A stretch of 64,000 nt of DNA, taken from contig CBDESS010000002.1 in the NCBI GenBank assembly GCA_965242605.1, forward strand, positions 128,572 to 192,571, read 5' to 3'. This DNA is from an uncultured Candidatus Binatia bacterium (GTDB lineage Bacteria > Desulfobacterota > Binatia > Bin18). The notes below the pieces were generated by a model that was given only the letters and a program-made list of their open reading frames with translations, was not told the origin of the DNA and did not search any database. Position numbers and translations under genes: made by a program. Shown here piece after piece: positions 10,991-17,481 of the stretch (the stretch's first letter is position 1; each line of letters starts with the position of its first letter).

Positions 10991-12982
10991 TCAGTCCTCC
11001 AGCGTCGGATAGGTATAGCTTTTGAGGGCGGCTTCAAACTCTTGCATCAGCCGCTCCCGCTCACCGTCCTGGCCGGTGCCGGTTGCGTCAAGCTGGCCCA
11101 GAAATCCTTCCAGCAACTCTTGCCGCTCATAGCCAAACACCTTGAGCACGCCCTCGATCGTCTGGCCGGGAATGATCCGGGTCAGGTGATAGTGGCCGGT
11201 GTTGTCAGTCACTACCGAGGCGTCGTGGACATGGCCGAACAGATTATGGTAGTCGCCCAGGACATCCTGATACGCGCCGGTAAAAAAGACCCCCAGATAA
11301 TACGGCTGGCCGTCAGGAGAGTGGAGTTCGAGCCAGTCTTTGATGTCTCGCAGGTCAACAAATGTATCGACCTTGCCGTCCGAATCGCAGGTCAGATCCG
11401 CCAGATAGCCCTTGTGGTCAGGGACCTCGGTCAGCCGGTGCAGCGGCATGATGGGAAAGAGCTGGTCTACGGCCCATGAGTCTGGAATAGACTGGAAGAC
11501 GGAGAAATTGCAGATGAACTTGCGGGCCAGGCGGCGCTCGAGGTCTTCAAACTCTTCGGGCATATGCCTGGCCAGCTTGGCAAACTTCAGCGCCCGCTCA
11601 CACGTCCCCCAGAACAACTCCTGCCCCAGCCCGCGATCCTCCAGGGACAGATAGCCCAGGTTGAACAGCGAGAACATTTCGTCGCGCTGCTCCACGATGT
11701 CGTGGTAGTACTCCCGGTAGTTCCTGGCGTTGAGCTCGGTGTAGATGTCGTACATTTCCCGGATGACCTGTGGGCGGCTGTCCGGGTCAGGGACATGAAT
11801 GGGACCGTTCGTCAGGGTCAACTCGTTGATGACATTAAAGACCAGCAGGGCGTGGGGGGCGGCGATCATGCGCCCATTTTCAGTCAGGACGGTCGGCTCG
11901 CGCACATCCTCGCTGTCGCACACCTCTTTGATGGAGTAGACAATGTCGTTGGCGTACTCATCGACCGAGTAGTTGACGCTCGAGTCTGAGGCGGTCCGCG
12001 AGCCATCGTAGTCAACGCCCAGACCGCCGCCGACATCAAGGTAGTTGAGCTGCGGGCACAGTTTGCGCAGCTTGGCATAGGTCCGCGCCGCCTCTTTGAC
12101 CGCGTACTTGATGCGCTTGATATCGGGCACCTGCGAGCCGATATGAAAATGCAGCAGTTGGAGGCAGTCGCCGAGCCTGGCTTCGTTCAGGCGGCTGAGG
12201 CAGACGAGCAGCTCCGTGGTGGTGAAGCCGAACTTGGACAGGTCGCCGCTCGACTTTTCCCATTTGCCGCTGCCGCGCGCCGACAGTTTGAGCCGCAGGC
12301 CGATACGGGGACGGATGCCGAGGTGGCGGCTCATCTCCAGCAGCAGCCCCAGCTCAAAGAGCGTTTCCAGAACGATAAAGACCTGCCGTCCGGCCTGTTC
12401 GCTATGCAGGGCGAGGCTGAGATAGGCTTCGTCTTTGACCCCGTTACAGATGATTGGCGCATTCGGATTGTGGTTCAAAGCCAGGGCCAGGGCCAGCTCG
12501 GCTTTGCTGCCGACCTCAATGCCGAGGTCGTAGCGCTGGCCAAAGCGAACGATCTCCTGGACAACCTCTCTTTTTTGGTTGGCCTTGATCGGATAGGCTG
12601 GAATATAGCCAGCCTTATAGCCGAACTCCTTGATTGCGGTCCGAAAAGCGGCGACCAGTTTCCTGATCTGCCCGTCCAGAATCTGGGGGAAGCGCAGGAT
12701 GAGCGGGGTTGACAGTCCACGCCGACGCAGCTCTGCCACGATCCGGGTGACGGCCACCGGCGCGCCGCGGTCAAAGGCCAGGACGACATCCCCCTCCCGG
12801 TTGACCGAGAAGTATGCTCCGCCCCATCTGTGTATTCCATACCGGTCGAGGTCTTCCTCGATAGCATTCCCGGCGGCAGAGGGCGCTGTGGGGATGGCTG
12901 TCGTGTCTCGCAGACTTTCGACCAGGCAAGATGAGAAACGTCCCAGCCGGGTATTACGGGGCCCCTCTTTGAGCACTCTCAT
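10991..12982 (-). CDS. speA: Biosynthetic arginine decarboxylase
   Basis: YPIKANQ (PLP Lys), HFHIGSQ, DVGGGLGVDYDG, NFSVFQSIPDSW, DLTCDSDG, GAYQD. Start placed at ATG 12982, which has an AGAGGAAG RBS. Confidence 0.96.
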   Translation of the reverse strand: MRVLKEGPRNTRLGRFSSCLVESLRDTTAIPTAPSAAGNAIEEDLDRYGIHRWGGAYFSVNREGDVVLAFDRGAPVAVTRIVAELRRRGLSTPLILRFPQILDGQIRKLVAAFRTAIKEFGYKAGYIPAYPIKANQKREVVQEIVRFGQRYDLGIEVGSKAELALALALNHNPNAPIICNGVKDEAYLSLALHSEQAGRQVFIVLETLFELGLLLEMSRHLGIRPRIGLRLKLSARGSGKWEKSSGDLSKFGFTTTELLVCLSRLNEARLGDCLQLLHFHIGSQVPDIKRIKYAVKEAARTYAKLRKLCPQLNYLDVGGGLGVDYDGSRTASDSSVNYSVDEYANDIVYSIKEVCDSEDVREPTVLTENGRMIAAPHALLVFNVINELTLTNGPIHVPDPDSRPQVIREMYDIYTELNARNYREYYHDIVEQRDEMFSLFNLGYLSLEDRGLGQELFWGTCERALKFAKLARHMPEEFEDLERRLARKFICNFSVFQSIPDSWAVDQLFPIMPLHRLTEVPDHKGYLADLTCDSDGKVDTFVDLRDIKDWLELHSPDGQPYYLGVFFTGAYQDVLGDYHNLFGHVHDASVVTDNTGHYHLTRIIPGQTIEGVLKVFGYERQELLEGFLGQLDATGTGQDGERERLMQEFEAALKSYTYPTLED

Positions 12983-13043: not shown

Positions 13044-13253
13044 TTAGCGCCCCGTAGCCATTGGGACACGGAGGGATGGGACGAGAGGGGTGGTGCGGAA
13101 AGTCGGGGGCAGTCTCTTCGCTTGGGGCCGACCCAGACCAGGTAGGGGTGTAGGTTGAGGTCGGGGTATGGTGCGGAGAGTCGGGGGCAGTCTCTTCGCT
13201 TGGGGCTGGCCCGAAGGTACGGGAGATACGGTGTGGGGTGCGTGTGTCTTCAA
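13044..13253 (-). CDS. Putative Pro-rich leader peptide upstream of speA (69 aa) with two PQAKRLPPT motifs
   Basis: TTG start with GAGGTG 11 nt upstream; the repeat period of 78 nt keeps frame; stop lies 61 nt before the speA ATG. Confidence 0.45.
   Translation of the reverse strand: MKTHAPHTVSPVPSGQPQAKRLPPTLRTIPRPQPTPLPGLGRPQAKRLPPTFRTTPLVPSLRVPMATGR
13091..13206. repeat. Two-copy 38-bp direct repeat (13091-13128 and 13169-13206, one mismatch)
   Basis: TGGTGCGGA(A/G)AGTCGGGGGCAGTCTCTTCGCTTGGGGC, read directly from the sequence. Confidence 0.95.
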
Positions 13254-13292
13254 GGCAGGCGGCTCACCTCGTGCTGCTGTAAGAGGCCATCA

Positions 13293-13321
13293 TCTCTACC
13301 CTCTTTGTTCACCTTTGTCAA
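13293..13321 (-). promoter_or_regulatory. Possible sigma70 promoter for the leader-speA-tsaC transcript
   Basis: Perfect TTGACA, 17 bp, weak -10 TAGAGA. Confidence 0.4.
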
Positions 13322-13359: not shown

Positions 13360-13388
13360 TTGAGCCGGGTAGGCCGATTCCGTACAAT
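13360..13388 (+). promoter_or_regulatory. sigma70 promoter of aguB (probably leaderless transcript)
   Basis: TTGAGC-17 bp-TACAAT ending 7 nt before ATG 13396; no SD. Confidence 0.6.
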
Positions 13389-13395
13389 ACGGGCT

Positions 13396-14263
13396 ATGGA
13401 TAGCAGTTCGTCCGCGGTCCGGGTCGGTTTGGTCCAGATGGTGTGCGGAGACGATCCCGGCGCAAACCTCAGCAAAGCCGTGCAGCGCATCGAGGCAGCC
13501 GCCCAGCGTGGAGCCCGGATTGTATGCTTGCAAGAGCTCTTCTGCTCGGTCTATTTTTGTCAGCGGGAAGATACCGGCTGTTTTCGGCTGGCCGAGCCGA
13601 TTCCTGGGCCGACAACCGAGACGCTCAGCCGGGTGGCGCGTGCCCGTCAGGTGGTGGTGATTGCGCCGATTTTTGAGCGGCGGGCAGCGGGTCTGTTCCA
13701 CAACTCGGTGGCGGTGCTGGACGCCGACGGCGCTCTGCGCGGCGTCTATCGCAAGATGCACATTCCTGATGATCCGCTCTATTATGAAAAGTTCTATTTC
13801 ACACCGGGCGATCTGGGGTTCCAGACCTTTGTGACCCGTTACGCTCGGATTGGAGTCCTCATCTGCTGGGATCAGTGGTTTCCCGAGGCCGCCCGCCTGA
13901 CCGCCCTGGGCGGGGCCCAACTGCTGTTCTACCCGACGGCTATTGGTTGGCACCAAGCCGAACACGCCGAAGAACGCCAGGCGCAGCGCCACGCCTGGGA
14001 GACAATCCAGCGTGGCCACGCTGTTGCCAACGGGGTCTTTGTCGCGGCGGTGAACCGCGTTGGCACAGAGGGCGGGCTTCAGTTTTGGGGCTCCTCTTTT
14101 GTGAGCGATCCTTTTGGCCGCGTGCTGGTCAGTGCCGGAGCCGAGCACGAAGAGACGGTGCTGGTCTCGTGCGATCTCGGTCGTATTGATACGGTGCGCC
14201 AGGAGTGGCCGTTTCTACGCGATCGCCGGATCGATGCCTACACCAATCTCACCAAGCGCTATC

Positions 14264-14271
<8 letters not shown>
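13396..14271 (+). CDS. aguB: N-carbamoylputrescine amidase (carbon-nitrogen hydrolase family)
   Basis: LQELF, YRKMHIPDDPLYYEKFYFTPGD, ICWDQWFPE, WPFLRDRR; adjacent to aguA and speA. Confidence 0.92.

Positions 14272-17481
<3,210 letters not shown>

Follow-up and report, generated by a model that had tools for sequence, protein, structure and literature searches.

We analyzed a stretch of 64,000 nucleotides (the window) from an uncultured Candidatus Binatia bacterium (contig CBDESS010000002.1, assembly GCA_965242605.1), concentrating on a tandem repeat in the 5' leader of speA, the gene of the biosynthetic arginine decarboxylase. Window coordinates are used throughout, and the speA leader is read on the minus strand. 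The repeat had initially been annotated as a candidate tandem RLPP ribosome-arrest leader peptide, with an RNA-level tandem motif or a recent duplication as hedges. Based on the comparison with related genomes and public contigs, we consider it probable that the repeat is a lineage-private insertion or duplication of 78 nt, made up of a second 44-nt copy and a 34-nt spacer, within a non-coding speA leader, and that the repeated unit has no detectable sequence-specific function, neither forming a stable RNA structure nor being conserved above the neutral background. The anatomy of the leader, the privacy of the second copy, the lack of coding and structural signatures, and the identity of the constrained blocks are established here. 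Apart from three constrained blocks, we read the leader as C-rich, unstructured and evolving near-neutrally. The main value of this result is the removal of a false lead, since a striking tandem RLPP in front of a polyamine gene appears as the compositional by-product of a private duplication.

The repeat search yielded a single family of two 44-nt copies that are 93% identical (41/44) and lie 78 nt apart from start to start. The longest exact run common to both copies amounts to 28 nt, which by our own arithmetic is far beyond chance for a match within 1 kb. Tandem Repeats Finder returned no rows, as the match is confined to the 44-nt cores. Of the three positions at which the copies differ, one is a synonymous and two are non-synonymous changes in the frame of the overlapping open reading frame (ORF) treated below. 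Comparison of the 34-nt spacer with the flanks gave no significant similarity: 305 of 2000 shuffles scored as high against the sequence upstream of copy 1 and 1509 of 2000 against the sequence downstream of copy 2. A gapped alignment can nonetheless be drawn. Within the own 3.64-Mb genome, BLAST of the 291-nt stretch found only itself, with 11 further matches of 15-34 nt at E ≥ 0.26. Profile searches of the same genome recovered the speA locus only, the next match (E 0.74) being located inside an ORF of 485 residues.

Extension of the analysis toward related genomes showed that the second copy is restricted to this lineage. The leader was searched by DNA BLAST in 41 genomes, consisting of the present genome (G000) and 40 relatives, and was matched in seven of them: G000 and six of its seven congeners. 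The number of matches among the 33 genomes of other genera was zero. A single repeat copy is present in all six congeneric leaders, recognized by both BLAST pieces overlapping on one unit, and in a MAFFT alignment only G000 has the insertion, which runs from the end of copy 1 up to the beginning of copy 2. Congruently, two public contigs from other studies, one assembled from run X3 of study P2 and one from run X4 of study P3, connect position 13100 directly to 13179 and thereby skip 78 nt. These contigs are 99-100% identical to the window in their aligned pieces, with 2 and 0 other differing letters, respectively. Simple assembly collapse is an unlikely origin of these one-copy contigs, as the 28 shared letters are fewer than the 31-letter words used in assembly. 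The two-copy form was encountered only in the likely source runs, namely in X1 and, by word share, in X2; in the X1 assembly, a single 13.5-kb contig of depth 28 contains the two copies and shows 0 differences. Among the 18 runs listed there is no RNA data set containing the stretch. A scan of metagenomes with a degenerate 27-letter pattern for further genus-like leaders delivered 0 stretches. The congener G002 (locus L059) is without the conserved 5' block and the repeat unit and has only the 3' part of the leader in common; its leader carries a short tandem repeat of its own with a unit of about 9-10 nt. Overall, the hedge toward a recent duplication is the part of the initial annotation that fits best, given one copy in 6/6 relatives and the 78 nt skipped in X3 and X4.

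Conservation along the leader was judged against the four-fold degenerate sites of speA in the same seven genomes, where 62 of 156 columns (0.397) are invariant. Seven related genomes and four-fold sites as an imperfect benchmark set the limits of this constraint test. Over the full leader, 112 of 235 columns without gaps (0.477) are invariant, and only three stretches rise above the background: the region of the -35 box (13/20 columns, p 0.02), the block at 13239-13268 (15-16/20, p 3e-4 to 1.5e-3) and the ribosome-binding site (RBS) with the start codon (17/20, p 4e-5). The -35 box itself is invariant in 7/7 genus leaders. In the repeat core, 7-9 of 20 columns are invariant (p 0.4-0.7), which is not above the four-fold background of the seven genomes. 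Furthermore, the pairwise identity of the leaders (0.67-0.83) tracks that of the four-fold sites (0.67-0.86). With both the leader identity and the repeat core at background, the apparent nucleotide conservation of the unit within the genus is attributed to shared ancestry alone.

Structural signatures were equally absent. Rfam 15 gave best matches of E 0.88 and E 6 on the leader, to unrelated families and far below threshold, and no match on the six related leaders. The two copies fold at -10.6 and -8.7 kcal/mol, with z -0.89 for copy 1 (34 of 200 shuffles as good) and z +0.78 for copy 2. Folding of the whole leader was no better than that of shuffles (z +1.37 in G000, +2.67 in G007, +0.61 in G001), and the same holds true for the conserved block at 13239-13268 (z +0.59). 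On the genus alignment, RNAalifold predicted 45 pairs, 4 of them compensatory, with a covariation term of -0.58 kcal/mol; with a repeat run included, the figures were 33-45 pairs, 3-4 compensatory pairs and a term of about 0. In a separate attempt, a conserved partner of the RBS was sought that would make the unit a mimic or antagonist of the Shine-Dalgarno (SD) sequence; this candidate was rejected, the best RNAduplex partner shifting between species and never lying in the repeat unit within the genus. An RNA-level tandem motif, the first hedge of the initial annotation, hence finds neither excess folding, nor an Rfam match, nor conservation above the synonymous-site background.

For comparison, the speA leaders of Binatia were grouped into those of this genus, group B (~255 nt, 9 loci), group C (~245 nt, 7 loci) and short leaders (10 loci). 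This comparison bears on the best surviving alternative, according to which the 44-nt unit would act as an RNA module (a hairpin, or a site for a protein or ligand), kin to a covarying hairpin of other Binatia leaders, so that two copies would change a riboswitch-like gain. Each copy is able to form a hairpin of the GCG-AGAG / CUCU-CGC type, one stem position is C-G in G000 and U-A in G007, and the cores have stayed 41/44 alike next to a spacer in which no likeness to the flanks could be detected. A hairpin in the corresponding position of the group B and C leaders is well supported: when 10 sequences were aligned with MAFFT alone, pairing held for 86.4% of cells versus 40-55% with the partner slid, both partners had changed in 10 of 11 pairs, and 0 of 500 shuffles attained the covariation score. 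The link from this hairpin to the repeat unit (group A) was rejected on several grounds. On the alignment of 23 module sequences, RNAalifold found 0 pairs and no consensus. A covariance model based on the 10 B/C sequences detected 0/8 group-A modules and 1/5 of the other group-C sequences at E ≤ 10. The 64 pairwise local alignments of group A against B/C stayed at chance (mean z 0.24 and -0.29). Added to this, 6/8 group-A modules have z above -1, besides the ordinary folding and background conservation of the unit. We regard an RNA module as quite unlikely on these data, and what credit remains is mainly owed to the possibility of an older duplication, its cores having been conserved by selection or homogenized by gene conversion.

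Tandem DNA operators for a transcription factor of the divergent speA and aguBA promoters would suit the location between two promoters of one pathway, and direct repeats spaced by 78 bp would lie on roughly the same helix face. Against operators stand the privacy of the second site to this genome, the background-level conservation of the unit, the position 80-200 bp downstream of the speA promoter and inside the transcribed leader, and the repeat search having given no inverted repeat; we consider them very unlikely.

The ORF behind the proposed arrest peptide was confirmed by the ORF list and its translation as a Pro-rich frame of 69 residues with a TTG start. It reads ...GQPQAKRLPPTLRT...GRPQAKRLPPTFRT..., with RLPP appearing once per repeat copy, and its stop, ending at leader position 280, is separated by 61 nt from the A of the speA ATG at position 342. 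Pfam contained no family matching the product. Within the genus, the products starting from the invariant TTG range from 36 to 69 codons and differ from each other. RLPP is found in one of the seven leaders (G000), the corresponding residues being RLPQ in G007, GLPG in G004 and EPPS in G003, and the frame is shifted by a 2-nt deletion in G001, G005 and G006 and by a 1-nt insertion in G007. Length and proline pairs are what the composition gives: at least as long an ORF occurred in 430 of 2000 shuffles of G000 (430-842 of 2000 across the seven genomes), a second frame is stop-free in 5/7 genus leaders, and two or more PP are contained in 77% of composition shuffles. Variable columns are spread evenly over the three codon positions of the ORF (18/35, 26/35, 21/36), compared with 96, 76 and 266 of 451 in the speA control from the same seven genomes. 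The synonymous share of differing codons amounts to 0.159 in the ORF frame, to 0.185 and 0.287 in the other frames, and to 0.591 in speA.

These results bear on the initially proposed scenario, in which the 69-codon ORF is translated and polyamines or arginine cause ribosomes to stall at its two RLPP motifs, thereby attenuating speA. In its favor, an SD-like motif and the TTG start lie in a conserved block, the 78-nt period preserves the frame, and the ORF sits upstream of a polyamine gene, as described for orf34/SpeFL before speF (PMC6386406; bioRxiv 10.1101/604074). Opposed to this are the occurrence of RLPP in a single species out of seven, the frame-changing indels within the genus, one copy only in 6/6 related leaders and apparently also in near-identical populations, a length and PP count expected from composition, and the absence in the ORF of third-position and synonymous biases that are both clear in speA. 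RLPP is thus not kept as amino acids upstream of speA in the relatives. We see hardly any room for an arrest peptide, and the RLPP-RLPP "peptide" is, on the sequence data, a by-product of C-rich sequence read in one frame. Weakest of all, with a negligible chance, is an assembly artefact, suggested by the restriction of the two-copy form to X1 and X2 and countered by the independent assembly of X1 spanning the whole stretch in one contig, by a spacer of unique sequence that must be present in the reads, and by copies sharing only 28 exact letters, fewer than the 31-letter words of the contigs.

Several observations nevertheless weigh against a private duplication of a functionless unit. The TTG-initiated frame is open in 7/7 genus leaders, with an SD-like motif and the UUG in best-conserved sequence, so that translation is possible, and the period of 78 nt corresponds to 26 codons and keeps the frame. 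The hairpin of groups B and C resides at the same relative place, and its short arm motifs resemble the repeat core in the almost ungapped alignment of 23 sequences; this likeness did not hold up under testing. Weak constraint on the core could be missed with seven genomes and an imperfect benchmark. The one-copy contigs of X3 and X4 are short, of depth 3.3, and represent short-read assemblies rather than raw reads. Finally, the spacer lacks significant likeness to the flanks although the cores agree at 41/44 positions, which does not describe a clean recent tandem duplication. Two histories are possible on this evidence: a complex event that delivered a 44-nt copy together with filler sequence, or an older duplication in which selection or gene conversion has maintained the similarity of the cores, with secondary deletions between the repeats giving rise to the one-copy contigs. 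The latter would mean that the unit matters.

The features of the locus are compiled in the following table.

Table 1. Features of the speA leader and its surroundings (window coordinates)
Feature	Position	Strand	Basis and remarks
speA, biosynthetic arginine decarboxylase	10991..12982 (ATG at 12982)	-	Pfam; N-terminus aligned to relatives from residue 1
speA ribosome-binding region and start codon	12979..13004	-	most conserved block of the leader
69-codon TTG ORF ("RLPP" ORF)	13044..13253	-	ORF list; open as sequence is C-rich, peptide unconserved
Repeat copy 2 (speA-proximal)	13091..13134	-	repeat search
78 nt missing from the one-copy form	13101..13178	.	joint slides within 28 shared letters
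Spacer between the copies, 34 nt	13135..13168	-	sequence
Repeat copy 1 (promoter-proximal)	13169..13212	-	repeat search
Conserved 5' leader block: SD-like GAGGTG, variable spacer, TTG, next ~10 nt	13239..13268	-	column conservation
speA promoter, predicted	13293..13321	-	TTGACA 13316-13321, 17-nt spacer, weak -10 TAGAGA 13293-13298
aguB promoter-like site TTGAGC-17-TACAAT	13360..13388	+	promoter scan; kept in relatives
aguB-like N-carbamoylputrescine amidase (CN_hydrolase)	13396..14271	+	Pfam 3.1e-60; start by homology (tblastn)
aguA-like agmatine deiminase	14114..15394	+	PAD_porph 2.1e-122; ORF as listed, start unrefined

As initially annotated, the direct repeat is real and lies between speA and the divergently oriented aguB-like and aguA-like genes, whose identities are borne out by Pfam; speA matches Orn_Arg_deC_N (3.2e-37), Arg_decarb_HB and Arg_decarbox_C. 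The TTGACA box, the GAGGTG upstream of the TTG and a small ORF MMASYSSTR ending in GAGGTGA can likewise be read directly in the sequence. The -10 box of speA was below detection by the promoter scan, being too weak. From the predicted promoter, the speA leader would extend over ~300 nt here and ~215-225 nt in the relatives. The scan for an intrinsic terminator-like site or hairpin gave none in the speA leader. MMASYSSTR (13263-13292, minus strand) begins inside the predicted -10 box or immediately behind it. Only two of the seven genus leaders (G000, G007) have its ATG, and the TGA stop is confined to G000, which makes MMASYSSTR unlikely to be a gene. On the opposite strand, the aguB ORF as listed opens at 13168, and homology puts its start at 13396. 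With the TACAAT box ending at 13388 and the ATG at 13396 (plus strand), the predicted aguB mRNA would be leaderless or nearly so. The aguB promoter motifs were found again at other Binatia loci. Within aguB, a 32-nt stretch (13588-13619, plus strand) is also matched, with 2 differences, by far deeper contigs in three runs (depth 185 vs 28 in X1). These contigs diverge from the window on both sides, marking the stretch as a short segment common to other, more abundant DNA of the same samples.

The region may be a regulatory leader of speA, its promoter and its SD-like/TTG block being conserved above background in the alignment. The C-rich composition provides a further hint toward its possible mode of action. 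The best 78-nt window of the G000 leader contains 39 C and 12 G (ratio 3.25), a value reached by 1.0% of random genome segments, and the C/G ratio lies at 1.9-3.4 in all seven genus leaders. A rho gene is present in the genome (Rho_RNA_bind at 119 bits in an open frame of 446 residues). The leader therefore combines a C-rich, G-poor tract of ~80 nt, little structure (z +0.61 to +2.67) and an encoded Rho, as expected of a Rho-utilization (rut)-like site. A translation-coupled attenuator of the Rho type would be expected to show this combination of a conserved initiation-like block, an unconstrained peptide, a C-rich tract under compositional constraint, and an RBS that is conserved. In such a model, a conserved promoter of the sigma-70 type would produce the ~300-nt leader, and the block with the SD-like motif and the UUG would start translation of an ORF whose peptide sequence is irrelevant. 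Ribosomes on this ORF would cover the C-rich, G-poor, unstructured tract resembling a Rho-loading region, so that read-through into speA would depend on leader translation. The effect of the duplication would simply be to lengthen this tract by 78 nt, or 26 in-frame codons. Polyamines are reported to stimulate initiation at UUG codons and at poorly spaced SD sequences in E. coli, which would give the block at 13239-13268 a route to polyamine sensing. Transcription start, ORF translation, Rho action and effector are all inferred here, and we put this attenuator forward as a tentative possibility. A leader devoid of any regulatory role beyond promoter and RBS appears somewhat doubtful, and sequestration of the SD sequence via CCUC-containing stretches unlikely.

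Of 44 Binatia-type loci examined, 34 show the divergent arrangement of aguB and speA. All but one of these 34 intergenic regions contain TTGACA (33/34), and in other groups a TATATA-like -10 box follows 17 nt downstream. Ten loci with short leaders (L031, L033, L035, L037-L039, L041, L043, L044, L046) have the same speA promoter and an intergenic region of 132-181 nt, measured from the aguB start to the estimated speA start, indicating repeated gain or loss of the long leader within the class. With an nhmmer profile of the leader from this genus, 4/79 speA loci were matched, all of the same genus, and wider leader homology was rejected. We regard the Binatia speA leaders as orthologous by position only and do not claim homology.

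Group B leaders (~255 nt; L025:1252-1506, L027, L028, L029, L030, L034, L048, L054) contain several hairpins with compensatory changes, RNAalifold assigning double changes to 18 of 38 pairs. A CCUCC stretch is predicted to pair with the G-rich SD sequence, and no Rfam match was obtained. The group B leader, which lies outside the present window, can be considered a candidate for a new structured leader. One common frame holds an open UUG/GUG ORF in 6/9 group-B and 6/7 group-C leaders; its synonymous share of 0.22 in group B and 0.15-0.17 in group C, versus 0.40-0.69 in the speA control, denotes a coding signal that is weak at best. In six group-B leaders (L025, L026, L027, L030, L034, L048), the UUG ORF comprises 47-74 codons and stops with UAA, UGA or UAG 57-63 nt upstream of the speA ATG, the stop codon falling each time into the loop of one and the same downstream hairpin. 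L026 carries an insertion of ~72 nt in the main hairpin with the frame kept. One could go further and view the Binatia speA leaders as a new family of cis-regulators of putrescine synthesis, in which a UUG leader ORF of unconstrained peptide and the downstream RNA (C-rich and rut-like here, covarying hairpins elsewhere) would jointly sense translation or polyamine status, the private copy being a natural gain-changing variant; we rate this generalization as a long shot.

A modest interest in the locus remains, as an uncultured lineage has retained a long leader in the region where the speA and aguBA promoters diverge. In this leader, a tract resembling a Rho-loading region comes after a single conserved block with the appearance of a leader-ORF start, and the natural one-copy and two-copy alleles could be compared directly. 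If the leader is indeed regulatory, the leader-ORF/Rho control known for enterobacterial speF would extend to speA in a distant lineage. A limited literature search for a leader or riboswitch of arginine decarboxylase/speA found no such speA leader element, and we make no claim of novelty in print.

Among known systems, leader attenuators of the mgtL/mgtP type are Rho-dependent and governed by translation of a leader ORF rich in Pro codons. The present leader resembles them in its C-richness, its Pro-rich open frame and the lack of an intrinsic terminator, a similarity that is compositional only. SecM, ApdA and ApdP represent the RAPP/RAGP-type arrest motifs. They share with our locus an Arg-x-Pro-Pro string in a small ORF upstream of a gene, whereas here the defining motif is missing in 6/7 orthologous leaders and the PP pairs are compositional. 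Closest in outline is the speF leader with orf34/SpeFL of Salmonella and E. coli, which also places a long 5' leader and a short upstream ORF before a polyamine-biosynthetic decarboxylase; the C-rich rut-like tract, the rho gene and the conserved block of SD-like motif and UUG belong to the same outline. In Salmonella, translation of orf34 counters Rho-dependent termination and an RBS-sequestering structure (PMC6386406), and in the speF system the conserved peptide acts as the sensor through its Arg codons and ornithine-sensing domain. In contrast to the speF leader, with which we compare by description, the peptide of our locus varies even within the genus and bears no coding signature, the gene is speA, and the lineage is Binatia. 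The repeat itself differs from a simple, very recent tandem duplication by a spacer that is not derivable from the flanks. With two copies in one lineage, one copy in relatives and in near-identical populations, and a unit evolving at the neutral rate, it most resembles an ordinary local duplication/indel polymorphism.

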